The notes beneath the pieces were generated by a model, which saw only the letters and a list, made by a program, of their open reading frames with translations, was not told the DNA's origin and ran no database searches. Below, one piece after another: positions 2,834 to 28,108 of a stretch of 36,937 nucleotides of DNA. Source of the DNA: a virus (taxonomy: Duplodnaviria; Heunggongvirae; Uroviricota; Caudoviricetes). The position numbers and the translations under genes are program-made. The stretch is from IMG/VR virus record IMGVR_UViG_2698536485_000021, one strand, 5' to 3'. Each line of letters opens with the position of its first letter. Within the stretch, counting starts at the first letter, position 1.

Positions 2834-3121
2834 TCAATTTGAAACTATTGTACTTCTTATACAAGCAACCACTTCAATATCAGAAAATGCACATTCAAAG
2901 CTATTCTCTGTAGTTGTAATTTTAATCATACCTTTTGGAAGCTTTGTGATTTTTCGAATGGAATAGGTTCCGTCGATGTTGATTAACCAGTGTCCATCAA
3001 GTACTTCAGAAAATTTTTGATCACAAATGTATGTGACAAGCCCATCCTGAATAACAATTGGTGATGAAAGATTTGCAGGAAGAAATGATGAATCGAATAC
3101 ATATGAACCATCTTCAATCAT
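2834..3121 (-). CDS. 95-codon ORF: either the C-terminal domain of an interrupted 186 CI-like repressor or a separate small gene co-transcribed with the T5orf172 gene
   Basis: Same frame as the HTH ORF at 3191-3430, separated only by one TAA (3191-3193) and 23 open codons; weak RBS of its own; AT-rich like the cargo gene. Confidence 0.45.
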   Translation of the reverse strand: MIEDGSYVFDSSFLPANLSSPIVIQDGLVTYICDQKFSEVLDGHWLINIDGTYSIRKITKLPKGMIKITTTENSFECAFSDIEVVACIRSTIVSN

Positions 3122-3190
3122 TTTGCCTGCGGTAAGGCGAAACTTGGGAAGCTCTTCTGTGGCTACTGTCAGCGAGCTTTGCTTAAGTCC

Positions 3191-3430
3191 TTACCCGGTG
3201 GTTAACCATTTCAGTGAGGTTCCTGTTTCAAGAGCACATTGGATTATCCAGTCTGCAGGAAACGTATCCCGCAAATACCTGTTCGCCAGAGTGCTTTTTG
3301 ATACTTCCAAGTGATCAGCTAAAGCCTGTCGTGTCGTAAAGCCATAAGCTTCGACTAATCGCTCAATCGCAGCCTTACCACCTTTATTGGGATTTATTTT
3401 GATCTCACTTGGGTACTTTGATGTTGACAT
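3191..3430 (-). CDS. Immunity repressor, HTH DNA-binding N-terminal domain (186 CI-like); ends at an in-frame TAA
   Basis: 79-aa ORF with HTH-like segment (TTRQALADHLEVSKSTLANRYL); divergent from the apl/cox-like gene across a 95-bp control region, as in P2/186 switches. Confidence 0.7.
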   Translation of the reverse strand: MSTSKYPSEIKINPNKGGKAAIERLVEAYGFTTRQALADHLEVSKSTLANRYLRDTFPADWIIQCALETGTSLKWLTTG

Positions 3431-3779: not shown

Positions 3780-4289
3780 ATGTTTGATTACCAAGTTTCC
3801 AAACATCCACATTTTGATGAAGCCTGTCGTGCATTCGCATTGCGCCACAACCTGGTGCAACTGGCAGAACGTGCTGGCATGAATGTGCAGATTCTGCGGA
3901 ACAAGCTGAACCCATCTCAACCTCATTTATTAACCGCACCAGAAATCTGGCTGCTTACCGATCTGACAGAAGATTCAACGCTGGTAGATGGTTTTCTGGC
4001 ACAGATTCACTGCCTGCCATGTGTACCGATTAATGAGGTTGCAAAAGAGAAACTGCCGCATTACGTCATGAGCGCAACTGCAGAGATCGGACGTGTTGCA
4101 GCAGGTGCGGTATCTGGTGATGTAAAAACTAGTGCCGGTCGTCGTGATGCTATCAGCAGCATTAACTCTGTAACACGACTGATGGCGCTGGCTGCTGTTT
4201 CATTGCAGGCCCGTTTACAGGCTAATCCTGCGATGGCGAGTGCAGTTGATACCGTGACTGGCCTCGGTGCTTCATTCGGTTTGCTGTGA
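3780..4289 (+). CDS. 186 CII-like regulatory protein (Phage_CP76 family)
   Basis: [20 protein letters not shown]... resembles my recollection of 186 CII; position after apl/cox. Confidence 0.65.
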
Positions 4290-6184: not shown

Positions 6185-8595
6185 GTCATGACGATATGAA
6201 CAATTGCAGCGGCTTTAACGAGGCCGCCGCAGCATTTTCATGGAACGGCTCGAAAAAGGCCATTAACCCTTATCTGGACCCGGCGGAAGTTGCGCCGGAG
6301 TCTGCACTTTCAAACCTGATCACTCTGTACGCTGCCGATAACGAGCAGGAACAACTGCGCCGCGAGGCACTGAGTGAGCAGGTCTGGGAGCGTTATTTCT
6401 TTAATGAATCCCGTGATCCTGTCCAGCGCGAAATGGAGCAGGATAAGCTCATTAGCCGGGCAAAGCTGGCGCATGAACAGCAGCGTTTTAATCCGGACAT
6501 GATCATTCTGGCGGACGTAAACGCCCAGCCTTCCCATATCAGCAAGCCGCTGATGCAACGTATTGAATACTTCAGCAGCCTGGGCAGGCCAAAGGCTTAT
6601 TCCCGCTATTTGCGTGAGACGATTAAGCCATGTCTGGAGCGACTGGATTGTGTACGTGACAGTCAGCTATCTGTTTCTTTCCGTTTTATGGCAAGCCATC
6701 AAGGGCTGGAGGGTCTGCTGATCCTGCCTGAAATGAGCCAGGATCAGGTGAAACGCCTGTCCACCCTGGTAGCAGCGCATATGAGCATGTGTCTTGAGGA
6801 CGCTTGTGGTGATTTGTATGCCACCGATGACGTTAAGCCAGAAGAAATCCGCAAGACATGGGAAAAGGTGGCAGCGGAAACCCTGCGTCTGGATGTTATC
6901 CCGCCTGCGTTTGAGAAACTTCGTCGGAAAAGAAACCGCCGCAAACCAGTGCCCTATGAACTCATCCCGGGTTCGCTGGCGCGTATGTTGTGTGCCGACT
7001 GGTGGTATCGGAAATTATGGAAGATGCGTTGCGAATGGCGGGAAGAGCAGTTGCGTGCTGTCTGCCTGGTCAGCAAAAAAGCATCCCCCTATGTCAGCTA
7101 TGAAGCCGTGATGCATAAACGTGAGCAGCGCCGTAAGTCGCTGGAGTTTTTTCGTTCTCATGAACTGGTGAACGAAGACGGCGACACGCTGGATATGGAA
7201 GATGTGGTAAACGCCAGCAGCAGCAACCCGGCGCATCGCCGCAATGAGATGATGGCCTGTGTTAAAGGTCTGGAGCTTATCGCGGAAATGCGCAGTGACT
7301 GTGCCGTTTTCTACACTATCACCTGTCCGTCGCGTTTCCATTCCACGCTCAATAACGGCAGACCAAACCCGACCTGGACAAACGCGACGGTAAGACAAAG
7401 TAGCGATTATCTGGTCGGCATGTTTGCTGCATTTCGTAAGGCTATGCATAAAGCCGAGTTGCGCTGGTATGGCGTGCGGGTAGCTGAGCCGCATCATGAC
7501 GGTACTGTGCACTGGCATCTCATGTGTTTCATGCGTAAAAAAGACCGCCGCGCCATCACTGCATTACTGCGTAAGTTTGCCATCCGTGAAGACCGCGAGG
7601 AGCTGGGCAATAACACGGGACCACGCTTTAAGTCTGAGCTTATAAACCCGCGCAAAGGTACGCCAACAAGCTATATCGCGAAATACATCAGTAAGAACAT
7701 TGACGGGCGTGGTCTGGCTGGGGAGATCAGCAAGGAAACGGGTAAATCCCTGCGTGATAACGCTGAATACGTTAATGCCTGGGCGTCTCTGCATCGTGTT
7801 CAGCAATTCCGCTTCTTTGGCATTCCGGGGCGTCAGGCTTACCGTGAACTGCGATTGCTGGCTGGTCAGGCGGCAAGGCAACAGGGTGACAAAAAAGCAG
7901 GTGCGCCGGTACTGGATAACCCGCGCCTTGATGCCATTCTGGCTGCTGCTGATGCTGGTTGTTTTGCCACCTATATCATGAAGCAGGGCGGCGTACTGGT
8001 TCCCCGTAAATATCACCTCATCAGAACCGCTTATGAAATCAACGAAGAGCCAACCGCCTATGGCGATCACGGTATTCGTATTTATGGCATCTGGTCACCC
8101 ATTGCAGAGGGCAAGATCTGCACTCATGCGGTGAAGTGGAAAATGGTTCGTAAGGCCGTTGACGTTCAGGAGGCGGCAGCCGACCAGGGCGCTTGCGCCC
8201 CTTGGACTCGTGGCAATAACTGTCCCCTTGCTGAAAATTTGAACCAACAAGGGAAAGACAAATCAGCTGATGGGGACTCCAGAACGGATATTACCCGTAT
8301 GAATGACAAGGAGTTGCACGATTACCTGCACAGTATGAGCAAAAAAGAGCGCCGGGAACTGGCTGCAAGGTTACGCCAGGTGAAACCGAAACGGCGTAAA
8401 GACTACAAACAGCGAATTACAGACCATCAGCGACAGCAGCTCGTCTATGAACTGAAGTCCAGGGGATTTGATGGCAGCGAGAAAGAAGTCGATTTGCTCC
8501 TTCGCGGCGGCAGTATTCCGTCAGGAGCAGGCCTGCGTATCTTCTATCGGAACCAGCGTCTGAAGGAAGATGATAAGTGGCGGAACCTATATTAA
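6181..8595 (+). CDS. A: Replication initiation protein A (rolling-circle nickase, P2 gpA-like)
   Basis: ~805 aa; HUH-type motif (VHWHLM) and tandem active-site tyrosine motif (YIAKYISK); position after the early small genes. Confidence 0.85.
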
Positions 8596-8687
8596 TTACG
8601 CGGGTTAACAATTCGTGCTCTTAATAATACCAGGCATATCAGGCCGATGAACGTAAAAAAACGTTTTACATCAGTAAGATTATTATA

Positions 8688-8707
8688 TACTGTAAATATA
8701 AACAGTG
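8688..8707. promoter_or_regulatory. LexA operator (SOS box) TACTGTAAATATAAACAGTG upstream of the 8748 ORF
   Basis: Fits CTGT-N8-ACAG with an AT-rich spacer (CTGT 8690-8693, ACAG 8702-8705); 40 bp upstream of a strong AGGAGG RBS and ATG. Confidence 0.7.
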
Positions 8708-8747
8708 GTTATGTGTACAGTATTGTTTTGGTGTCATAGGAGGAAAG

Positions 8748-8936
8748 ATGCAGGACTATTTTTTGGAGTCTTTGAAGCTCCAGCGCATTGATTTTTTTCT
8801 TAAGCTTGTAGCGGCTAGTGAGTGTAGTGATGAAGAGAAGGGGCTGGCTCTGCAGTGGGTTTCTGAATTGACTGATGAACTCATGGCAAAAATCAGAAGC
8901 CACGAATACAACCGCTCAATGGATGTCATCAGCTGA
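8748..8936 (+). CDS. SOS-controlled small protein; possible Tum-like antirepressor component
   Basis: 62-aa ORF with AGGAGG RBS directly downstream of the LexA box; 186 carries the LexA-controlled antirepressor gene tum at this position. Confidence 0.5.
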   Translation: MQDYFLESLKLQRIDFFLKLVAASECSDEEKGLALQWVSELTDELMAKIRSHEYNRSMDVIS

Positions 8937-8946
8937 GGTGACTTTT

Positions 8947-9180
8947 ATGCGCATTGAAATAATGATCGATAAAGAGCAGAAGATTAGCCAGTCTACCCTG
9001 GACGCCCTTGAATCCGAGCTTTACCGCAATCTGCGCCCCCTGTATCCCAAAACGGTAATTCGCGTTCGCAAAGGTAGCTCTAACGGTGTGGAACTAACCG
9101 GACTGCAACTGGATGAAGAAAGAAAACAAGTGATGAAAATTATGCAGAAGGTGTGGGAGGACGACAGCTGGCTGCATTAA
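8947..9180 (+). CDS. DinI-family protein
   Basis: MRIEIMIDK...ELTGLQLDEERKQVMKIMQKVWEDDSWL follows the DinI pattern (N-terminal MRIE and C-terminal acidic W-containing tail); GAGGTG RBS 7 nt upstream of ATG 8947. Confidence 0.75.
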   Translation: MRIEIMIDKEQKISQSTLDALESELYRNLRPLYPKTVIRVRKGSSNGVELTGLQLDEERKQVMKIMQKVWEDDSWLH

Positions 9181-13194: not shown

Positions 13195-14957
13195 AAAATC
13201 TCCACAATATTGCTGGTATTGGCGGATTCGCCCTGCAGCGGTTCGTTAAACAGTGCGTGCATCGTTGCCCATGCCAGATCGGCGTGGCTGGCTTCTTCGC
13301 TGCGGCTGGCTTCATAGGTCGGGCGGTTGCCACTGGCGGTGGTGGAGCGACGGATTGCCATAAAGGACTGCGCTATGTCGGTGTGTCCGGCGTCAAACTC
13401 CAGACGGCGGTGGCTGATAATGTCGTAGGCCTTGAGTACCAGGGCGTTTTTAACGTTGGGGTTGTAGACAAACTCCCGGACGGCAGGAAAGAACGCTTTC
13501 ACGTTCTCATAAACCCCGTGACCAACGCCGGTTGAGTCGATACCGATATAGGTCACGTTGTACTGTTCGGTCAGTTTTTTGATGGCGTCAGCCTGGGCGC
13601 GAAAGTCCATCCCGCGCCACTGGTGACGCTCAAGAATGCGGAACTTGCCGCCCGGCACGGCTGGCGGTGCCACCACCACGCATCCGGCACTGTCGCCGTT
13701 CTGCGTACCTTTCGCCGGGTCATAACCGATCCACACTTCGCGCCAGCCAAATGGGCGCAGTGCCAGTGCATGAAAGTCGGTCCAGACTTCCCAGCTGTCC
13801 ACCATGCACGCCTGCAGCTCGCTGAGTGGGAACACAGACGCGAGATCGTCCACAAACTCGCACATCAGCAGGTTCTGGTATTCGTCCGGGCTGTACTCCA
13901 TGCGTAACTGATCGAGGTCGAACAGGTTACATCCGCCGCGCACTGCATCTTCCACGGTGACTATCTGGCGGTATTGCCCGTCTGCGCACAGCAGGCCGGG
14001 GGCCAGATTGCTGTGGGACAGGTCGATGTCCACCTTATCGGCTTTGTTGCGCCCACGGTTGAACAGCGCACCGGACCAGAACGGATAAGCACTGTGTGTC
14101 AGGCTGGATGGCGTGGAAAAATAGGTTTGTCGCCATTTTTTGTGAATAGCCATACCGGAAGCCACTTTGCGCAGCTCCTGGAATTTCGGTATCCAGAAAT
14201 ATTCATCCAGATACAGGTTGCCGTGGTAACTCTGGGCTGTGCGGGCATTGGTGCCGAGGAAGTAAAGCGTGGCCCCGTTGGGAAGCACCATCGGATCGCC
14301 TTTCAGCTCCACCTCCACTTCTTTGGCGAAGTCGATGATGTACTGTTTAAAGACGTGGGCCTGTGCTTTACTGGCGGAAAGGAAAATCTGGTTACGTCCA
14401 GTCAGAAGGGCGTCAATCAGGGCTTCACGGGCAAAGTAAAAGGTCGCGCCGATCTGGCGTGACTTCAGCAGGTTGCGGATGCGGTTGGTTTTTCCGGCTT
14501 CCCACCAGTGGCGCTGGTAGTTGAACATGGAGGAATGGAAGATTTCTTCCAGCTTCTCAATCTGCTCATCGGTGAAAACATTCTTTTCCGGCTGACGGCG
14601 CGGGCCTTTGTTGCGGTTGGCGACGTTAGGGTTTAAGTCGGCTTCGTTACCGCCATTGTTAAACTTGCCGATGCGCGCGTGGCGTTCCGACTGGCGCGCC
14701 AGCAGGTCAATTTCTTTGAAATCTTTCCCTTCTTTGTGCTCCTTCATAATGAGCTGGCAGTAGAGTGCGGCGGTGGTGAGCTGCATCTGATCCAGCGGCC
14801 CATAGTCACCCCACTTGTCGCGTTTTTTCCAGCTGTGAACGGTTGCAACTTTCTCGCCCAGCATTTCAGCAATGCGGGCTACGCGGTATCCCTGAAAGTA
14901 CAGCAGCATGGCCTGCCGACGGGGATCGAGATCTGCGGGTGTCAGTGTGGTGTTCAT
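13191..14957 (-). CDS. P: Terminase large (ATPase) subunit (P2 gpP-like)
   Basis: 588 aa; co-directional with Q with overlapping stop/start; P2 P is about 590 aa. Confidence 0.85.
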   Translation of the reverse strand: MNTTLTPADLDPRRQAMLLYFQGYRVARIAEMLGEKVATVHSWKKRDKWGDYGPLDQMQLTTAALYCQLIMKEHKEGKDFKEIDLLARQSERHARIGKFNNGGNEADLNPNVANRNKGPRRQPEKNVFTDEQIEKLEEIFHSSMFNYQRHWWEAGKTNRIRNLLKSRQIGATFYFAREALIDALLTGRNQIFLSASKAQAHVFKQYIIDFAKEVEVELKGDPMVLPNGATLYFLGTNARTAQSYHGNLYLDEYFWIPKFQELRKVASGMAIHKKWRQTYFSTPSSLTHSAYPFWSGALFNRGRNKADKVDIDLSHSNLAPGLLCADGQYRQIVTVEDAVRGGCNLFDLDQLRMEYSPDEYQNLLMCEFVDDLASVFPLSELQACMVDSWEVWTDFHALALRPFGWREVWIGYDPAKGTQNGDSAGCVVVAPPAVPGGKFRILERHQWRGMDFRAQADAIKKLTEQYNVTYIGIDSTGVGHGVYENVKAFFPAVREFVYNPNVKNALVLKAYDIISHRRLEFDAGHTDIAQSFMAIRRSTTASGNRPTYEASRSEEASHADLAWATMHALFNEPLQGESANTSNIVEIF

Positions 14958-15003
14958 GGCACAAACCTACAGCCTTGAATGACGGCTTTCCCCGCCTGCG
15001 GTT

Positions 15004-15021
15004 TGTGTGGTTGTCGGTACA
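15004..15021. promoter_or_regulatory. Ogr-dependent late promoter element TGT-N12-ACA in the divergent P/O control region
   Basis: TGT 15004-15006, ACA 15019-15021 with exact 12-nt spacing, between the divergent P and O starts. Confidence 0.5.
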
Positions 15022-15099
15022 AATACCGCGCATTGTTTCACTGCCCCCATCACCGCAACCATAAGGCTCCAGTAAGTTTTTTCTAACGGAGCACGGCTC

Positions 15100-15933
15100 A
15101 TGACAGTGAAAGCAAAGCGTTTTCGCATCGGGGTGGAAGGTGCCACTACCGACGGACGTGAAATCCAGCGTGAATGGTTGGAACAGATGGCAGCCAGCTA
15201 CAACCCGGCGGTGTATACCGCGCTGATTAACCTTGAGCACATCAAGTCTTATCTGCCGGACAGCACCTTTAACCGCTACGGCAAGGTGACGGCGCTGTTT
15301 GCTGAAGAAATCACGGAAGGTCCGCTGGCGGGCAAGATGGCGCTGTATGCCGACGTTGAGCCAACGGAGTCCCTGGTGGAGCTGGTGAAAAAAGGCCAGA
15401 AATTATTCACCTCTATGGAAGTCAGCCCGAAGTTTGCTGATACGGGCAAAGCCTACCTAGTCGGCCTGGCGGCCACTGATGATCCTGCCAGTCTGGGCAC
15501 TGAAATGCTGACATTCAGCGCCAGTGCAGCCTATAACCCGCTGGCAAACCGCAAGCAGAATCCCGCCAATCTTTTTACCGCTGCAGAGGAAACGGTGAGC
15601 GAACTGGAAGAAATCCAGGAGGACAAGCCGTCCCTGTTTGCCCGTGTCACGGCGCTGTTTACCAAAAAAGAGCAGTCCGATGACGCCCGGTTCTCTGATG
15701 TGCATAAGGCCGTGGAGCTGGTCGCCACTGAGCAGCAGAACCTGAGCGCACGCACCGAAAAATCCCTGTCTGAGCAGGAAGAACGCATGTCTGAGCTGGA
15801 GACTGCTCTGCAGGAGCAGCAAACCGCCTTTAACGAACTGGTGAATAAGCTGAGTCATGAAGACAGCCGCCAGGACTACCGCCAGCGTGCAACAGGCGGT
15901 AACGCCCCCGCTGACACTCTGACCAATTGCTGA
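15100..15933 (+). CDS. O: Capsid scaffolding protein (P2 gpO-like)
   Basis: 277 aa, first gene of the rightward head operon; acidic helical C-terminal half. Confidence 0.8.
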   Translation: MTVKAKRFRIGVEGATTDGREIQREWLEQMAASYNPAVYTALINLEHIKSYLPDSTFNRYGKVTALFAEEITEGPLAGKMALYADVEPTESLVELVKKGQKLFTSMEVSPKFADTGKAYLVGLAATDDPASLGTEMLTFSASAAYNPLANRKQNPANLFTAAEETVSELEEIQEDKPSLFARVTALFTKKEQSDDARFSDVHKAVELVATEQQNLSARTEKSLSEQEERMSELETALQEQQTAFNELVNKLSHEDSRQDYRQRATGGNAPADTLTNC

Positions 15934-15949
15934 TGGAGCACAAAACCTG

Positions 15950-17008
15950 ATGAAGAAGAATACCCGCTTTGCTTTTAACGCTTACCTGCAGCAACTGGCA
16001 CGTCTGAACGGTGTGGCAGTTGAAGAACTGTCCAGCAAGTTCACTGTAGAGCCGTCTGTGCAGCAGACGCTGGAAGACCAGATCCAGCAGTCCGCCGCTT
16101 TCCTGACGCTGATTAACGTCACGCCAGTGACTGAGCAGTCCGGTCAGCTGCTGGGGCTGGGTGTTGGCAGCACCATTGCCGGAACCACTGACACCACCGC
16201 GAAAGAGCGTGAACCTGTCGATCCGACGCTGATGGTCGATGTGGAATACAAATGCGAACAGACCAACTTTGACACGGTGCTGACCTACGCGAAGCTGGAC
16301 CTGTGGGCGAAGTTTCAGGATTTCCAGGTGCGTATCCGTAACGCCATCGTGAAACGTCAGGCACTGGACCGCATCATGATTGGCTTTAACGGAGTGAAGC
16401 GTGCGAAAACCTCTAACCGTAGCGAAAACCCGCTGCTGCAGGATGTGAACAAAGGCTGGCTGCAGAAAATCCGTGAGGATGCACCGGATCACGTCATGGG
16501 CAGCACCACCACGGGCGGTGAAACCATACCGGGTGCGGTGAAAGTCGGGAAAGGTGGCGAATATGCCAACCTGGACGCCGTGGTGATGGATGCGGTCAAT
16601 GAGCTTATCGACGTGGTCTACCAGGACGATGACGATCTGGTGGTGATTTGCGGTCGTGAGCTGCTGTCTGACAAGTATTTCCCGCTGGTCAACAAAGAGC
16701 AGGAAAACAGTGAAAAACTGGCTGCCGATATGATCATCAGTCAGAAACGCATGGGGGGTCTGCAGGCCGTGCGTGCGCCGTTCTTCCCGCCGAATGCGCT
16801 GCTGATCACCCGTCTGGATAACCTGTCCATTTACTGGCAGGAGGACACCCGCCGCCGTTCGGTTATCGACAACCCGAAACGTGACCGGATTGAAAACTTT
16901 GAATCCGTTAACGAAGCCTATGTGGTTGAGGACTACCGCTGCGCAGCACTGGTGGAAAACATCCAGATTGGCGACTTCAGCGCCGCCGCCGCAGAAGCCG
17001 GAGCATAA
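15950..17008 (+). CDS. N: Major capsid protein (P2 gpN-like)
   Basis: 352 aa (P2 N ~357), follows O. Confidence 0.85.
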   Translation: MKKNTRFAFNAYLQQLARLNGVAVEELSSKFTVEPSVQQTLEDQIQQSAAFLTLINVTPVTEQSGQLLGLGVGSTIAGTTDTTAKEREPVDPTLMVDVEYKCEQTNFDTVLTYAKLDLWAKFQDFQVRIRNAIVKRQALDRIMIGFNGVKRAKTSNRSENPLLQDVNKGWLQKIREDAPDHVMGSTTTGGETIPGAVKVGKGGEYANLDAVVMDAVNELIDVVYQDDDDLVVICGRELLSDKYFPLVNKEQENSEKLAADMIISQKRMGGLQAVRAPFFPPNALLITRLDNLSIYWQEDTRRRSVIDNPKRDRIENFESVNEAYVVEDYRCAALVENIQIGDFSAAAAEAGA

Positions 17009-20975: not shown

Positions 20976-21554
20976 ATGAACGCACAATTAACCGAAATCA
21001 TGCGCCTTATCACCAATCTGATCCGCACAGGTGTAGTCACCGAAGTGGACCGGGAAAACTGGCTTTGTCGGGTGAAAACAGGCGAGCTTGAAACCAACTG
21101 GATCAGCTGGCTGACGCTGCGTGCCGGGAATGCCCGCACATGGTGGCGACCATCAGAAGGTGAGCAGGTGGTGCTGCTGAGTCTGGGCGGCAATCTGGAA
21201 ACCGCCTTTGCGTTACCCGCCATCTATTCGAATCAGTTCGCGCCACCGTCGACGTCGGCGAACGCCTGCGTGACAGAACATCCTGACGGTGGCTGGTTTG
21301 AATACGAACCCGCCACCGGGCGGTGGTATGTCAGGGGCATCAAATCAATGGTCATTGAGGCCGCTGACAACATCACCATGAAAACCAGTGAGTTTGTACT
21401 GGAGGCTGACCGCACGCGCATTAACAGCGAAGTGGTGATCAATGGTGGCGTTACCCAGGGCGGCGGAGCGATGAGTTCTAACGGGATCGTGGTTGATACG
21501 CATCAGCATACTGGCGTCCTGAAAGGCGGCGATACAACCGGAGGCCCGGTATGA
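20976..21554 (+). CDS. V: Baseplate spike/assembly protein V (P2 gpV-like)
   Basis: 192 aa; synteny. Confidence 0.8.
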   Translation: MNAQLTEIMRLITNLIRTGVVTEVDRENWLCRVKTGELETNWISWLTLRAGNARTWWRPSEGEQVVLLSLGGNLETAFALPAIYSNQFAPPSTSANACVTEHPDGGWFEYEPATGRWYVRGIKSMVIEAADNITMKTSEFVLEADRTRINSEVVINGGVTQGGGAMSSNGIVVDTHQHTGVLKGGDTTGGPV

Positions 21555-21910
21555 CGCTTTATAGTGGGATGAACAATACCAGCGGCAAAGTCATTACTGA
21601 TATTGACCATCTGCGCCAGTCGGTGCGGGACATTCTGCTGACGCCGCAGGGTAGCCGCATTGCTCGTCGTGAATATGGTTCCCTGCTGTCGTCGCTAATA
21701 GACCAGCCACAAAATCCGGCATTACGCCTGCAGGTCATGTCGGCAGTGTATGTGGCGCTGAGTCGCTGGGAACCACGGATGACGCTGGATTCCATCACCA
21801 TCAACAGCAATTTTGACGGTTCAATGGTGGTGGCGCTGAGCGGGCGGCGTAATAACGGTGTGCCTGTTTCCCTTTCCGTATCAACAGGAGCAGAGAATGG
21901 CAGTGATTGA
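21551..21910 (+). CDS. W: Baseplate wedge protein W (gp25-like)
   Basis: 119 aa (P2 W 115); overlapping start/stop with V and J. Confidence 0.8.
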   Translation: MTLYSGMNNTSGKVITDIDHLRQSVRDILLTPQGSRIARREYGSLLSSLIDQPQNPALRLQVMSAVYVALSRWEPRMTLDSITINSNFDGSMVVALSGRRNNGVPVSLSVSTGAENGSD

Positions 21911-22805
21911 CCTTTCGCAGTTGCCTGCGCCGCAGATTGTGGATGTGCCGGACTTTGAGACGCTGCTTGCCGAACGCAAGGCCGAATTTGTTGCGCTTCA
22001 TCCGAAAGATGAGCAGGAAGCCGTGATCCGCACGCTGGAACTGGAATCTGAACCCGTCACCAAATTGCTGCAGGAGAACGCTTACCGTGAGTTGCTTCTG
22101 CGCCAGCGCATTAACGAAGCCGCGCAGGCTGTGATGGTGGCTTACGCGATGGGCAGCGATCTTGACCAGCTCGCTGCCAACTACAACGTGAAACGCCTGA
22201 CGGTGACGCCTGCTGATAATGACGCTGTGCCGCCCGTTGCAGCTGTGATGGAAAGCGATGAAGCGTTACGCCTGCGTGTGCCTGCAGCCTTTGAAGGGCT
22301 TTCAGTTGCGGGGCCAACTGCAGCTTATGAATTTCATGCCCGAAGCGCCGACGGTCGGGTGGCGGATGCCAGTGCAACCAGCCCAGCACCTGCAGAGGTG
22401 GTGCTGACTGTCCTTAGCCGCGAAGGCGATGGAACTGCAGAAAAAGACCTGCTGGACGTGGTGGAAAAAGCTCTGAACAGTGAGAACGTCCGCCCGGTGG
22501 CTGACCGTCTTACGGTTCGCAGCGCAGAAATCATCCCGTATCGTGTGGAAGCCACCATTTTTCTCTATCCTGGACCGGAAGCAGAGCCGGTAATGGCAGC
22601 GGCAAAAGCCAGCCTGCAGAAGTACATCGCCAGTCAGACGCGTCTTGGTCGGGATATTCGCCGTAGCGCCATCTTTGCCGCCCTGCATGTTGAGGGTGTG
22701 CAGCGTGTGGAGCTGGCTTCTCCTCTGGCGGATGTGGTCCTGAACAAAACACAGGCGGCATCATGTACGCAGTGGAGCGTAACCAACGGAGGAACGGATG
22801 AATAG
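21897..22805 (+). CDS. J: Baseplate assembly protein J (P2 gpJ-like)
   Basis: 302 aa from ATG 21897 (P2 J 302 aa). Confidence 0.85.
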   Translation: MAVIDLSQLPAPQIVDVPDFETLLAERKAEFVALHPKDEQEAVIRTLELESEPVTKLLQENAYRELLLRQRINEAAQAVMVAYAMGSDLDQLAANYNVKRLTVTPADNDAVPPVAAVMESDEALRLRVPAAFEGLSVAGPTAAYEFHARSADGRVADASATSPAPAEVVLTVLSREGDGTAEKDLLDVVEKALNSENVRPVADRLTVRSAEIIPYRVEATIFLYPGPEAEPVMAAAKASLQKYIASQTRLGRDIRRSAIFAALHVEGVQRVELASPLADVVLNKTQAASCTQWSVTNGGTDE

Positions 22806-23403
22806 TCTGCTGCCACCGGGTTCAACACCACTGGAACGCCGACTGGCGCAAACCTGCAGCGGGATTTCTGATCTGCAGGTGCCGCTTCGTGACTTGTGGA
22901 ATCCGGCAACCTGTCCGGTCAGTTTCCTGCCTTATCTCGCCTGGGCGTTCTCTGTGGATCGCTGGGACGAGGGCTGGACAGAAAGCGTCAAGCGCCAGGT
23001 GGTGAAGGATGCTTTTTATATTCATCAGCATAAAGGGACCACCAGTGCCGTGCGGCGGGTGGTGGAGCCGTTCGGCTTTCTGATCCGCATTATTGAGTGG
23101 TGGCAGACCGCAGAGGCACCGGGCACGTTTCGCCTGGATATCGGCGTGAAGGACCAGGGCATCACTGAAGATACCTATCTGGAACTTGAGCGACTGATAA
23201 GCGATGCCAAACCATGTAGCCGCCACATGATCGGCATGTCCATCAATCTGCAGACCAGCGGCCCGCATTGGGTGGGAGCCGCCAGCTATCTTGGCGAAGA
23301 AATCACGATCTATCCGTATATCAACGAAACGATTATTTCCGGTGGCACCGCGCATGAAGGCGGGGCGGTCCATGTTATTGACACAATGAGAGTGAATCCA
23401 TGA
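22798..23403 (+). CDS. I: Baseplate protein I (P2 gpI-like)
   Basis: 201 aa with GGAGG RBS; precedes the tail fibre gene. Confidence 0.8.
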   Translation: MNSLLPPGSTPLERRLAQTCSGISDLQVPLRDLWNPATCPVSFLPYLAWAFSVDRWDEGWTESVKRQVVKDAFYIHQHKGTTSAVRRVVEPFGFLIRIIEWWQTAEAPGTFRLDIGVKDQGITEDTYLELERLISDAKPCSRHMIGMSINLQTSGPHWVGAASYLGEEITIYPYINETIISGGTAHEGGAVHVIDTMRVNP

Positions 23404-24821
23404 GCACAAAATTTTATACCCTGCTGACGGATATTGGCGCGGCGAAACTTGCCAGCGCCGCCGCGCTCGGTGTGCCGCTAAAAATTACCCATATGGCGGT
23501 GGGCGATGGCGGCGGAGTATTGCCAACGCCGGACGCAAAGCAGACGGCACTGGTAAATGAGAAACGCCGGGCTGCGCTGAATATGCTTTATATCGACCCG
23601 CAGAACAGCAGCCAGATTATTGCTGAACAGGTGATCCCTGAAAACGAGGGTGGTTGGTGGATACGTGAAGTGGGCCTGTTTGATGAGTCCGGGGCATTGA
23701 TTGCCGTGGGCAACTGCCCGGAAAGCTATAAGCCGCAACTGGCTGAAGGCAGCGGGCGCACCCAGACCGTGCGCATGGTGCTGATTACCAGCAGTACGGA
23801 CAATATCACCCTGAAAATCGACCCTGCTGTAGTGCTGGCAACCCGTAAATACGTGGATGATGAAGTCCTGGAATTAAAGCTGTATGTGGATGACCAGATG
23901 AGAAACCACATTGCCGCACAAGATCCTCATACCCAGTATGCGCAGAAACATAATCCGACATTTACCGGAGAACCAAAAGCGCCGACGCCTGCAGCAGGAA
24001 ATAACACCACGCGGATTGCGACCACTGAGTTTGTTCAGGCCGCTATTACTGCTCTGATTAACGGTGCGCCAGCCACGCTGGACACACTGAAAGAAATTGC
24101 CGCAGCCATTAACAATGACCCGAAATTCAGCACCACCATTAACAATGCGCTGGCACTAAAAGCACCGCTGTCGAGTCCGGCACTCACCGGAACCCCAACA
24201 GCACCTACTGCGGCACAGTCGGTCAACAATACACAGATTGCCACTACAGCTTTTGTGAAATCAGCGATTGCAGCAATGGTGGGGTCTGCACCTGCGGCAC
24301 TGGATACACTGAACGAACTGGCGGCGGCACTGGGGAATGATCCGAACTTTGCCACGACAATGCTTAATGCGCTGGCAGGTAAACAACCGCTGGACAATAC
24401 GCTTACCAATTTGAGTGGAAAGGATGTAGCTGGTCTTCTCGCATACCTTGGTTTGGGAGAAGCGGCGAAAATGAGGGCATCTAATACAGTGGCCTCCACA
24501 TCAGGGCGAATTTCGATTCCAACCTTCGTTGAGGGAGTAGAGAGGGAGTTAATTATTCAGTGGGTAACTGGGGTCATCTCTGATGGTAACGGAGTAGCGA
24601 AAATAACACTGCCAATGGCATTCTCTAATGCATTAATGTATGCAGTAGCTGTTGATTGTGGGGCCAGTGAATCAGCATGGCCTGGTAATTCTGGAACAAC
24701 GTGGGGGGGTGATTTTTATAATTCGTCAAGAACAACTGTAATTGCACGAGTATTAAAATTTGCGAATGGAAATTGGTATGGTGGGACAGCAGCAGGAAGT
24801 ATACTTGCAATAGGATACTGA
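23400..24821 (+). CDS. H: Tail fibre protein H
   Basis: N-terminus MSTKFYTLLTDIGAAKLASAAALGVPLKITHMAVGDGGG is the conserved P2 H-type start; internal ~45-aa tandem repeats; AT-rich divergent C-terminal tip. Confidence 0.85.
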   Translation: MSTKFYTLLTDIGAAKLASAAALGVPLKITHMAVGDGGGVLPTPDAKQTALVNEKRRAALNMLYIDPQNSSQIIAEQVIPENEGGWWIREVGLFDESGALIAVGNCPESYKPQLAEGSGRTQTVRMVLITSSTDNITLKIDPAVVLATRKYVDDEVLELKLYVDDQMRNHIAAQDPHTQYAQKHNPTFTGEPKAPTPAAGNNTTRIATTEFVQAAITALINGAPATLDTLKEIAAAINNDPKFSTTINNALALKAPLSSPALTGTPTAPTAAQSVNNTQIATTAFVKSAIAAMVGSAPAALDTLNELAAALGNDPNFATTMLNALAGKQPLDNTLTNLSGKDVAGLLAYLGLGEAAKMRASNTVASTSGRISIPTFVEGVERELIIQWVTGVISDGNGVAKITLPMAFSNALMYAVAVDCGASESAWPGNSGTTWGGDFYNSSRTTVIARVLKFANGNWYGGTAAGSILAIGY

Positions 24822-24822
24822 T

Positions 24823-25242
24823 ATGAAAACTCGATTTTATTTTTGCAGTGAAGATACTGGTTTTTATATTTTACCTGGTAGTTCTTTTGTACCTAAGTCA
24901 TCTATTGAAATTACAGCAGAACAGTACGCAAAATATGCGGGCGTTGCGTGGCCAGAAAATAAAGTACTAGGAGTTTGTGATGATGGGAATCTGGCATGGC
25001 TTGATGCCCCCCAGCTATCGTATGAGGAAAAATTAATAAAAAATGAATCTCAAAAACAAAAATTAATCTCTATTGCTAATGAGTATATAAACAGTAAACA
25101 GTGGCCAGGTAAAGCAGCCATTGGTCGTCTGAAAAGCGAAGAGCTAGTGCAGTACCATTTATGGTTAGATTATCTCGATGAGGTAATTGCGATAGATGCT
25201 TCCAGTGAGACGGATATTATTTGGCCAAAACCGCCAAAATAA
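24823..25242 (+). CDS. G: Tail fibre assembly chaperone (P2 gpG-like)
   Basis: 139 aa immediately after H; MKTRFYF...LWLDYLDEV ending is Tfa-like. Confidence 0.75.
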   Translation: MKTRFYFCSEDTGFYILPGSSFVPKSSIEITAEQYAKYAGVAWPENKVLGVCDDGNLAWLDAPQLSYEEKLIKNESQKQKLISIANEYINSKQWPGKAAIGRLKSEELVQYHLWLDYLDEVIAIDASSETDIIWPKPPK

Positions 25243-25422
25243 TTATTATTCATTAACAAAATGGTTTATATATGTTAATTTATCGATTTTTATATTGCCT
25301 CGAACGTTTGCAATAAGTTTTTATTGTTGGATTGTTAATGATCCCCCGGTGAAACCGGGGAATCATAAAAATTAGTCTTTCTTAATGATGTTTAATTGTT
25401 CTTTTTTGTAACTTGTAGAGAT

Positions 25423-26550
25423 TTAGTTAAATGTGTTGATTATTTTTTTTCCAATCTTTATGCATGGTTTTTCAATAGATAAGTAACTTATATATGAAAG
25501 AGAGTAAACTATGGGAAAACATATTATAGATGTTATGAATAACCTTAAAAATGCTGGTTCATGGTGGATCTCGGAATGATTTAACAGGAAGGCGCAAACA
25601 GGTGTTACAATCAGTAAGTGAATTAAGTACACAGAGTATGAAACATCACCAAGCCATACGCTAAATTTATTATTTAATGTTCTTTTGATTTGTTTTTTTA
25701 ATTCATTTTGTTTTGATACGTCGTCGCCATTGACAATATAAAATATAAAAGCGCATAATATTATTTGTATTACCAATTGTTTTGTATTTATATGAATATG
25801 ACTTGTTGATGCAATTATAATTACAAAGATAGCGAGTGCTAGATATGATTTGTTATGTTTAAAAATAGACATATAAACGAGCATTCCGGCAATAAAAATA
25901 GGAAGCTTAATTAAAATAAATGAAGGCATGTGAAACGATTTGAAAAAATCGGGGAAAATAAAAAACATAAAAGTGGATAGTATAGAAGTAATTAATAATG
26001 AAAGCCGCATTCCGAATTTTTCCGCGGCAATCATAATAAATGGGAATATTAAATAATATTGAGTTTCCAATCCTATGCTCCAGTCAGGCAGGGTAGTTCT
26101 GAAACTATAGTCAGGAATCACGCCAAAAATGAAGGAAAGATGTAGCATTATGTTTTTGACTGACTGGTCAGAAAATCTATTTACATCTGTTGCCGTTTGA
26201 GGATAGAAGTCGGCAATGATTTCTCTCATATTTCCAATATATGGGCCGAAATAGATAGCTATAGCTAATAAAATATAATATAGAGGAGCAATACGGAAGA
26301 ATCGCCTAATCCAAAAATTTCTCATTGTACTAAATTTAATCCATGGTTCAATATCTTGTCGTTCAATATAGTTTTTAGTCATCAAGAAACCTGATAAGAG
26401 AATGAACAAATCAACGCCATAAGTTGGTTCACCAAGAATAGGTATTCTGCATTCTGTTAAAATCGCTATATGGCCAATAAATACCCATACAGAGGCAAGT
26501 CCTCTTAGACCTTCAAGCTCAGGAAGCCATCCTTTTCTAGTCATGTGCAT
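25423..26550 (-). CDS. Integral membrane acyltransferase (acyltransferase-3 / OafA-Oac family), probable lysogenic-conversion gene
   Basis: 375 aa, polytopic hydrophobic profile, N-terminal LRGLASVWVFIGH signature; isolated AT-rich gene on the opposite strand between G and FI. Confidence 0.75.
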   Translation of the reverse strand: MHMTRKGWLPELEGLRGLASVWVFIGHIAILTECRIPILGEPTYGVDLFILLSGFLMTKNYIERQDIEPWIKFSTMRNFWIRRFFRIAPLYYILLAIAIYFGPYIGNMREIIADFYPQTATDVNRFSDQSVKNIMLHLSFIFGVIPDYSFRTTLPDWSIGLETQYYLIFPFIMIAAEKFGMRLSLLITSILSTFMFFIFPDFFKSFHMPSFILIKLPIFIAGMLVYMSIFKHNKSYLALAIFVIIIASTSHIHINTKQLVIQIILCAFIFYIVNGDDVSKQNELKKQIKRTLNNKFSVWLGDVSYSVYLIHLLIVTPVCAFLLNHSEIHHEPAFLRLFITSIICFPIVYSLSYISYLSIEKPCIKIGKKIINTFN

Positions 26551-26841
26551 ATGCTTTGAATCTTCATTTGATAGGGGAAGTGAATTATATCGCCGCTTTA
26601 TAAATATGCCATCAAAAATTCATATCGAATATAGGAATGCACTCGAACCAATCGGTAAGGGAGTGTCTGACCGAAAGTGAGTTTGGATTATATTCAAACA
26701 TAGACAAATAATATTGGCTTCTGGTTAATATATAGATATTGATGTGGTTTGTCACAATTTTTTAACAATGCAGGTTGTAACAAGTTCATCGGGAGCAGCA
26801 TTATGTTGATTATCCCTGCAAGCGGACAAATACCGTTATTT

Positions 26842-26859
26842 TGTGTGAATAACGGTACA
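26842..26859. promoter_or_regulatory. Ogr-dependent late promoter element TGT-N12-ACA upstream of FI
   Basis: TGT 26842-26844, ACA 26857-26859, embedded in a 9-bp inverted repeat ACCGTTATT/AATAACGGT. Confidence 0.5.
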
Positions 26860-26935
26860 ACTGCGCTTAGCTGTTTGTCAGGCACAATCACTTCAATATA
26901 GGGCGAAGCCTAATCCAATCAGGAGGTTCGCCACT

Positions 26936-28108
26936 ATGGCTCAGGATTACCACCACGGGGTGCGCGTTGTTGAAGTCAACGAAGGCACCCGATCCATTAC
27001 CACGGTGAGCACCGCCATCGTGGGTATGGTCTGCACGGGCGATGATGCCGATGCAAAAATGTTTCCTCTTAATAAACCCGTGCTGATCACTGATGTGCTG
27101 ACTGCCAGCGGTAAAGCGGGTGAGTCCGGCACGCTGGCCCGTTCGCTGGATGCCATCGCTGACCAGGCAAAACCCGTGACCGTTGTTGTGCGTGTGCCGC
27201 AGGGTGAAACGGAAGAAGAAACCACGACCAATATCATCGGCGCAGTGACTGCTGAAGGTAAAAAAACAGGCATGAAAGCTCTGTTATCTGCCCAGTCACA
27301 GCTCGGCGTTAAACCGCGCATTCTCGGCGTGCCAGGCCACGATAACAAAGCCGTTGCGACTGAGTTGCTGAGCGTGGCGCAAAGCCTGCGTGGATTTGCT
27401 TACCTGTCAGCGTATGGCTGCAAGACAGTGCAGGAGGCGATCACTTACCGCGAAAACTTCAGCCAGCGCGAAGGGATGCTGATCTGGCCTGACTTTACTG
27501 GCTGGGACACGGTGCTGAATGCCGAAGCAACGGCATATGCCACCGCCCGTGCGCTTGGTCTGCGCGCCAAAATTGACGAGCAGACCGGATGGCACAAAAG
27601 CCTGTCCAACGTGGGCGTGAACGGTGTCACCGGAATTTCTGCAGATGTGTTCTGGGATCTGCAGGACCCGGCAACCGATGCAGGTCTGCTGAACCAGAAC
27701 GACGTCACCACGCTTGTGCGCAAGGACGGTTTCCGCTTCTGGGGTTCCCGCTGCCTGAGTGATGACCCGCTCTTTGCCTTCGAAAACTACACCCGCACGG
27801 CGCAGGTGCTGATGGACACGATGGCAGAAGCACACATGTGGGCGGTGGATAAACCGCTTAACCCGTCGCTGGCCCGCGACATTATCGAAGGTATCCGCGC
27901 CAAAATGCGCAGCCTGGTCAGTCAGGGCTATCTCATTGGTGGTGATTGCTGGCTGGATGAGTCGGTGAACGACAAAGACACGCTGAAAGCCGGAAAACTC
28001 ACCATCGACTATGACTACACGCCAGTGCCGCCACTTGAAAATCTGATGCTGCGCCAGCGCATCACCGATCAGTACCTGGTGAATTTCGCCAGCCAGGTCA
28101 GCGCGTAA
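26936..28108 (+). CDS. FI: Tail sheath protein (P2 gpFI-like)
   Basis: 390 aa; N-terminus [19 protein letters not shown]...[11 protein letters not shown] closely resembles P2 FI. Confidence 0.9.

Follow-up and report, generated by a model that had tools for sequence, protein, structure and literature searches.

An AT3-only acyltransferase gene joined to a tail fibre tip and chaperone in the Z/fun slot of a P2-like prophage of Escherichia coli

The virus record IMGVR_UViG_2698536485_000021 (Caudoviricetes), a stretch of 36,937 nucleotides referred to below as the window, is a complete P2/186-like prophage in Escherichia coli, integrated beside ybjL, and it shares 100% identity with a prophage in strain 2014C-3061. 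The element studied here is an acyltransferase-3 (AT3) gene of its late region, located on the strand opposite to the tail genes, between the tail fibre assembly chaperone gene and the genes for the tail sheath (FI) and tube (FII), both recognised by Pfam. Such a gene, in AT-rich DNA and in this position, had been proposed from the letters of the DNA (hereafter the original prediction), and both the gene and its setting are confirmed. Indeed, the encoded protein matches the Pfam family Acyl_transf_3 (PF01757) over its full length (E 4e-23; 82.4 bits, the threshold being 31; aligned from position 3 to 324 of a 326-position profile) as well as PHROG 3333, ‘O-acetyltransferase’ (E 4e-51), while RefSeq names the gene ‘acyltransferase family protein’. 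The DNA between 25243 and 26935 has a GC content of 32.6%, and the AT3 gene itself 31.6%, compared to about 55% for the flanking late genes. The features of the locus are collected in Table 1.

The AT3 gene belongs to a variable block that is wider than the AT-rich island reported earlier. Homology to two related E. coli prophages, L002 and L003, stops in the fibre gene at 24472/24470 and restarts at 26796, as assessed by BLAST. The block delimited in this way, 24473-26795 (2,323 bp, 34.5% GC), is called the cassette below and is composed of the last ~116 codons of the fibre gene (44% GC), the chaperone gene (37% GC), a 180-bp spacer, the AT3 gene and a 245-bp upstream spacer. Thus, the island of the original prediction, placed at 25243-26935, is a real AT-rich block, but its limits have to be moved so that the fibre tip and the chaperone are included. 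The comparison across related prophages that had been suggested as a check was carried out; it revealed invertase switches or their remnants in this slot and placed the AT3 gene within a tip/chaperone cassette that had been overlooked.

Table 1. Features of the cassette and its borders in the window (positions in nucleotides).
Feature	Position	Strand	Remarks
Tail fibre gene, P2 H-like	23400..24821	+	473 aa; Pfam Phage_tail_fib, Gp53-like_C
Single invertase crossover arm TTCTCGCATACCTTGGTTTGGGAGAAGCGGCGAAAAT	24436..24472	+	37 nt; left edge of the cassette begins exactly at the end of the arm
Tail fibre assembly chaperone gene, P2 G-like	24823..25242	+	139 aa; Pfam Caudo_TAP, E 1.1e-15; PHROG 188
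GC-rich hairpin	25339..25367	.	13 bp; within the 180-bp spacer of the convergent chaperone and AT3 genes
AT3-only membrane acyltransferase gene	25423..26550	-	375 aa, uninterrupted open reading frame; 373 aa from the second ATG, the start used by RefSeq
AT-rich upstream spacer of the AT3 gene	26551..26795	-	245 bp; found in the cassette only
Conserved late-promoter region of the sheath (F) operon	26796..26935	+	right edge of the cassette; TGT-N12-ACA dyad at 26842-26859
Tail sheath gene FI	26936..28108	+	backbone gene bounding the slot; Pfam Phage_sheath_1, Phage_sheath_1C, Gp18_domIII_N

The fibre gene has a dual composition: the part up to 24472 is common to the related prophages, whereas the tip (24473-24821, about 116 residues) is specific to the cassette. 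No match to the tip was obtained by tblastn in 50,697 deposited phages, nothing was found in an index of 5.8 billion proteins, and a distant blastn search in E. coli returned no match beyond 8 carrier genomes. A similar distant blastn search with the chaperone gene found resemblance to other such genes of E. coli in the last ~150 bp only.

The borders of the cassette lie where the relatives have an invertible segment and an invertase gene. In L002, the 37-nt sequence found at the left edge (3037-3073) is accompanied by an inverted copy (3984-4020) that is 86%-complementary, and the two arms bracket a 910-nt segment in which an alternative tip-chaperone pair is encoded; a recombinase (invertase) gene comes directly after it. 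The 26-bp core of the arm resembles crossover sites of the hix/gix/cix kind. On the other side, the right breakpoint falls two bases past the annotated end of the invertase gene of the relatives (4076-4642 in L002, with homology from 4645). The two inverted sites and the invertase gene that make up a switch are thus present in L002, whereas neither a second 37-nt arm nor a recombinase/invertase gene was found in the window. Compared to the Hin/Gin/Cin-family fibre switches of related E. coli P2-like prophages, the window keeps the arm at the junction of the constant and variable parts and one tip-chaperone pair. This comparison of sequences shows that the cassette took the place of the invertible fibre segment and the invertase of the relatives, providing one locked tip-chaperone pair and an acyltransferase instead. 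We regard the fibre as locked, since the window lacks the second arm, the invertase gene and any alternative tip-chaperone pair. Invertible fibre segments of this general type include the G segment of Mu, the C segment of P1 and the P segment of e14.

Immediately past the right breakpoint, the late-promoter region of the sheath operon carries a dyad that we take to be an Ogr/Delta-type late-activator site, as in P2 and 186. In the P2 record, the activator site and the start of pF are annotated at the position equivalent to the dyad region. Since the pF region of P2 aligns poorly with the window at the nucleotide level, support for the late-promoter assignment comes from the dyad and from the conservation seen with closer relatives.

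The position of the AT3 gene corresponds to a known locus of P2. The P2 record has fun(Z) on the opposite strand between G and FI, flanked by the V-operon terminator and the pF activator site, and the AT3 gene sits in the same slot with the same orientation, just as the original prediction had stated. Its further statement that this locus is a variable hotspot is also borne out, since the G-FI locus is described as the second defence/cargo hotspot of P2-like phages, where fibre swaps and invertases are part of a mixed content (PMC9519451; 10.1101/2024.10.15.618418). The window agrees with this description, as its cargo lies between G and FI where the content varies among relatives. A word search of four papers on such hotspots, including these two sources, found no mention of an acyltransferase or acetyltransferase. 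Rousset 2022 was also considered as a source for Z/fun and was rejected, as it describes the old/tin hotspot. The window and P2 loci share the slot, the opposite-strand orientation, the AT-richness and the bounds formed by the end of the V operon and the pF late promoter. On the other hand, fun(Z) encodes a protein of 528 aa that is unrelated to the AT3 protein and to which the record assigns a block of T5 growth, while the window cargo is a membrane acyltransferase and, unlike fun(Z), shares its cassette with a new tip and chaperone.

To define the distribution of the cassette, 5,426 complete E. coli genomes were searched by megablast. The cassette was found whole in 8 of them, at an identity of at least 99.3%, and in none as a partial copy, while the flanking backbone was matched in 1,460 genomes. 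Furthermore, the cassette is 98.4-100% identical across prophages whose backbones are 94-97% identical. This intact-only occurrence, together with an identity exceeding that of the backbones, indicates that the tip, the chaperone and the AT3 gene recently spread as one block among diverged P2-like backbones. Several carriers are bovine or belong to lineages of E. coli that produce Shiga toxin (STEC); lettuce and chicken isolates are also among them. The same AT3 allele is present in 13E0725 (O182:H25) and 13E0780 (O156:H25), which represent one ST300 clone and differ by a switch of the O-antigen cluster (PMC5359238). A search of the literature library used here found no published data on O-acetylation of O156 or O182.

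Residue conservation in the AT3 protein was read from an alignment with 19 homologues of 45-70% identity. R16 and H27 of the R-X10-H motif in helix 1, the G45-V46-D47 stretch, F49, S53 and G54 are invariant, as are R82-R83-F-F-R86 with its RXXR motif, D156, E162, G222 and H311. These positions include the signatures of the AT3 family: R16 and H27 correspond to the R/K-X10-H motif with its histidine in the first transmembrane helix (R14/H25 in OafA), the RXXR motif is kept (R69/R72 in OafA; R73/R75 in Oac), and F49, S53 and G54 represent the FFxISG-type motif of the second transmembrane helix. The predicted model is polytopic and built of helices throughout, the fold known from the transmembrane acyltransferase superfamily. 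In OafA and Oac, mutagenesis identified the histidine, the upstream arginine and both RXXR arginines as essential (PMC7448272, also the source of the motif definitions), and modelling sets the essential AT3 residues around a pore admitting acetyl-CoA (PMC9833829). OafA and OafB of Salmonella and OatA share the R/K-X10-H and RXXR motifs, but their fused periplasmic SGNH domain and 11th helix are missing from the window protein: no SGNH domain was found, the sole Pfam domain of the 375-aa protein stopping at residue 351 and the model being wholly helical. Since this domain is absent, the protein is an AT3-only enzyme and not a fusion of the OafA/OatA type.

Comparison with homologues of 63-70% identity gave ratios of nonsynonymous to synonymous substitution rates (dN/dS) of 0.06-0.13, whereas dS was saturated for those of 59-60% identity and no ratio was obtained; these values point to strong purifying selection on this AT3 subfamily. 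Within E. coli, the variants seen carry 1-3 substitutions, and one has a harmless stop-to-Gln change adding 17 residues. The gene is annotated as intact in all 8 complete carrier genomes, and the open reading frame is intact in most members of its 90% identity protein cluster (222 members on ~490 contigs). On the coding strand, the last codons of the gene include eight consecutive A (25443-25450); slippage there would change only the final ~8 residues, so this run is unlikely to be a phase-variation switch. The original prediction had held that a gene disrupted in homologues would speak against its proposal. No such disruption is observed in E. coli, but the picture is different for a cluster of 56% identity from Klebsiella pneumoniae (P0011), which contains many split fragments (85-257 aa), in some cases two side by side in the same contig, suggesting that this homologue is often disrupted in Klebsiella.

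The homologues closest to the AT3 protein occur in two kinds of surroundings. On the one hand, several lie in polysaccharide loci: one of 63% identity is beside wzx (P0003), two of 60% and 57% identity share a context of wzx, a pyruvyl transferase, a GT2 glycosyltransferase and ugd (P0006 and P0067, the latter with gnd in addition), one of 59% identity is beside wza (P0004) and one of 53% identity directly follows ugd (P0010). In a metagenomic gnd-ugd-wzx-pyruvyltransferase-GT2 locus with a 57% homologue (L152), a Phage_tail_beta-domain gene beyond gnd (7973-9069) is an odd neighbour. On the other hand, the most similar homologue (70% identity, P0002) is found in a Raoultella prophage remnant, and one of 59% identity (P0005) is convergent with, and follows, siphovirus tail-tip and fibre genes. 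Another of 59% identity (P0007) has as its neighbour a protein whose PHROG is matched, too, by the N-terminal part of the fibre adjacent to P0005, and one of 56% identity (P0008) adjoins a BNR_4-domain protein and proteins weakly matching function-less PHROGs, its prophage context being tentative. This split between polysaccharide loci and prophage DNA supports the repeat unit of a Wzx/Wzy-type O-antigen or capsule as the acceptor. Further orthologues were observed in species-representative genomes of Erwiniaceae, Serratia, Cedecea, Buttiauxella, Dryocola and Scandinavium (loci L066-L145), with a dacD-like DD-carboxypeptidase gene as a neighbour in 26 of the 80 loci and sbcB in 20.

Other searches contributed little to the assignment. 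Single-protein scans of IMG/VR and of the species-representative genomes gave no close relative of the AT3 protein, and alignment-based scans reached identities of at most 46% and 50%, respectively. A sequence search of the PDB gave no relative, a match to a botulinum toxin being dismissed as chance, and Foldseek returned nothing significant from the PDB and a single match, an unnamed 637-aa protein, from BFVD. A homologue from Pantoea with 47% identity bears the name ‘BcsY’, which was rejected, as cellulose-synthase genes are absent within 10 kb. Identity with OpgC or WecH was likewise rejected because no NCBIfam model was matched, the sole one to appear being SucT, below threshold.

Phage-borne AT3 acetyltransferases that convert the serotype and block superinfection are well known, with examples in Sf6, phiV10, D3 and, for Salmonella, OafA and GtrC. 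The Oac proteins of Shigella phage Sf6 (OacA) and E. coli O157 phage phiV10, both validated acetylases of O-antigen, likewise belong to PF01757 and are AT3-only without SGNH, although somewhat shorter (333-338 aa vs 375 aa here). The gene arrangement is also similar: the Sf6 tailspike gene (13719-15590, +) is followed by oac (15624-16625, -), and the phiV10 receptor-binding gene (20996-23623, +) by oac (23636-24652, -), the same convergent layout as that of the fibre/chaperone and AT3 genes in the window. The phiV10 record annotates a function of oac in superinfection immunity, and O-acetylation by Sf6 renders the lysogen immune to further Sf6 infection (review, PMC9558356). By analogy, the role expected of the two Oac proteins, lysogenic conversion with superinfection immunity, would be expected here too. 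However, Sf6 and phiV10 are podoviruses in which oac neighbours int or lysis genes, while the window is a P2-like myovirus, and BLASTP similarity to the AT3 protein was not significant for either Oac (E 1.7 for Sf6; E 0.011 over 28 residues for phiV10). The earlier description of the enzyme as OafA/Oac-type therefore cannot be kept, the protein being neither of the OafA type, as it lacks SGNH, nor an orthologue of Oac. Finally, gp53 of BcepMu and gp25 of Pantoea phage AH07 are AT3 morons of ~28% identity. In these myoviruses, each directly follows a P2 gpH-like fibre or fibre-assembly gene and is convergent with it; they are nevertheless distant in sequence, come from phages of other hosts and do not occupy a P2 G-FI slot flanked by FI.

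The intergenic regions of the cassette were searched for expression signals. A promoter scan upstream of the AT3 gene yielded two pairs of sigma-70-like hexamers, ATGGCA-17-TATAAT (26612-26584) and GTGACA-17-TATATT (26755-26727), and this spacer shares no nucleotide homology with the DNA flanking other AT3 genes. At the other end of the gene, the GC-rich hairpin is stable, its predicted folding energy being -21.4 kcal/mol for the - strand (z -5.2) and -19 kcal/mol for the + strand (z -4.0). It is a candidate for stopping transcription in both directions, lacks a U-tract and was not called by a consensus terminator scan. An Rfam scan of 24300-27100 gave nothing meaningful.

Collectively, these data lead us to favour, with somewhat better than even confidence, a functional AT3-only inner-membrane acyltransferase that serves as lysogenic-conversion cargo, acylating O-antigen or capsule and thereby altering phage receptors. 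This appears to be the best-supported explanation, given what is known of the family and the genomic context; we only infer which acyl donor and acceptor glycan are used, that the lysogen expresses the gene and that phages are excluded. By analogy with the AT3 family, the protein of about ten helices would admit cytoplasmic acyl-CoA, probably acetyl-CoA, to a membrane pore lined by R16, H27 and R83/R86, and the acyl group would be handed to a sugar at the periplasmic face. The acceptor would most likely be the undecaprenyl-linked repeat unit of a Wzx/Wzy-dependent polysaccharide, either O-antigen or a group-1-type capsule. The surface of the lysogen would thus be chemically changed, which could shift its serological type and hinder adsorption of phages using that glycan, possibly including those bearing the co-travelling fibre tip.

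Several observations weigh against this explanation. The AT3 protein has no match to a PADLOC-DB defence model at E ≤ 0.1 and is not, in this sense, a recognised defence protein. The absence of significant similarity to the Oac proteins of Sf6 and phiV10 means that their substrate cannot be transferred by homology, and relatives in the 50,697 deposited phages reach only 28% identity, BcepMu gp53 being the best. The occurrence of one allele in O182 and O156 hosts makes O-antigen specificity uncertain and is awkward for a strictly O-unit-specific enzyme. In many Enterobacterales, the orthologues of 44-50% identity stand alone on the chromosome, outside glycan clusters. The sigma-70-like sites are not above shuffled expectation, so the hexamers upstream of the AT3 gene are only a candidate promoter. 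In addition, since the cI and tape-measure genes are pseudogenised in the window copy, self-exclusion may be irrelevant for this copy. Thus, a surface glycan as the target, which the original prediction had put forward, is plausible from the wzx/ugd/gnd/wza loci of the homologues, but the O-antigen in particular is less certain.

If the target is not O-antigen or capsule, it could be a conserved envelope glycan, such as enterobacterial common antigen, osmoregulated periplasmic glucans, the core of lipopolysaccharide (LPS) or peptidoglycan, and the enzyme would then act in general envelope remodelling. We consider this alternative rather unlikely, but it stays live because of the allele common to hosts with different O-antigen clusters and because of the stand-alone 44-50% orthologues, which are widely conserved and often located by dacD and sbcB. 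An AT3-only precedent with a conserved target also exists, namely WecH for enterobacterial common antigen (PMC9558356). However, the closest relatives (53-63%) sit in wzx/ugd/gnd/wza loci, no NCBIfam match to OpgC, WecH or a like family was obtained, and WecH and OpgC are already present in E. coli. As P2-type fibres use the LPS core, a core target would still amount to modification of a phage receptor.

The cargo could also be a conversion factor for fitness or virulence, whose acylation would mainly alter surface properties that matter for antibody, for complement or for colonisation of the gut, cattle-associated STEC being one example, with phage exclusion being incidental. The bovine or STEC-lineage origin of several carriers would fit this possibility, and O-acetylation is known to alter serotype and immune recognition (PMC9558356); moreover, the window prophage looks defective while its AT3 gene is intact. 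Nevertheless, the AT3 gene is tightly linked to one particular tip and chaperone and to no other, the same fibre-adjacent layout occurs in phages whose annotated role for the gene is superinfection immunity (Sf6 and phiV10), and the carriers also include the lettuce and chicken isolates. As a replacement for acylation that alters phage receptors, this role seems improbable, but it is compatible with such acylation and the two are not mutually exclusive. It is highly improbable that the gene is an unexpressed or inert passenger, hitch-hiking with the acquired tip and chaperone and functionless in E. coli: its low GC content is typical of foreign, possibly silenced DNA and the sigma-70 scan gave no convincing promoter, but the reading frame is intact in all complete carriers and most cluster members, all catalytic motifs are kept in a subfamily that appears to be under strong purifying selection, and the changes seen are confined to 1-3 residues and the harmless extension.

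Coming back to the proposed acylation of a surface polysaccharide, the fibre tip and the AT3 protein might even constitute a matched pair, the enzyme acylating the glycan that the tip binds, a tentative idea that we hold possible but clearly less probable than surface acylation as such. If it is true, a swap of the cassette would give the phage a new receptor specificity together with masking against its own kind at the prophage stage, at the cost of the invertase-driven host-range switch. The cassette would then be a portable receptor-binding and receptor-masking module, spreading via recombination at the crossover arm and the pF promoter.

Elsewhere in the window, some backbone genes show signs of decay. 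The cI repressor gene (2834-3388, -) is a pseudogene in RefSeq, with an internal stop and its N-terminus missing, and the tape-measure gene (29117-32194, +) has an internal stop at 29288-29290; the region 29229-29659 gave no megablast alignment to the two related prophages. The prophage copy of the window is therefore probably defective, with its cargo genes intact. [quoted passage not shown]

A phage gene for surface disguise is of a familiar kind, and one more example is unsurprising; it is the setting that is new, and the overall interest is modest. The proposed function would place a receptor-modifying enzyme, and not an intracellular immune system, in the Z/fun hotspot of P2, a kind of gene that surveys based on defence models overlook. 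Since the cassette is found in cattle-associated STEC lineages (O156, O182), an unrecognised acylation of their O-antigen or capsule could affect serotyping and phage-based control. Furthermore, the strict co-inheritance of the AT3 gene with a novel fibre tip and chaperone offers a concrete case for coupled evolution of receptor binding and receptor modification in P2-like phages.

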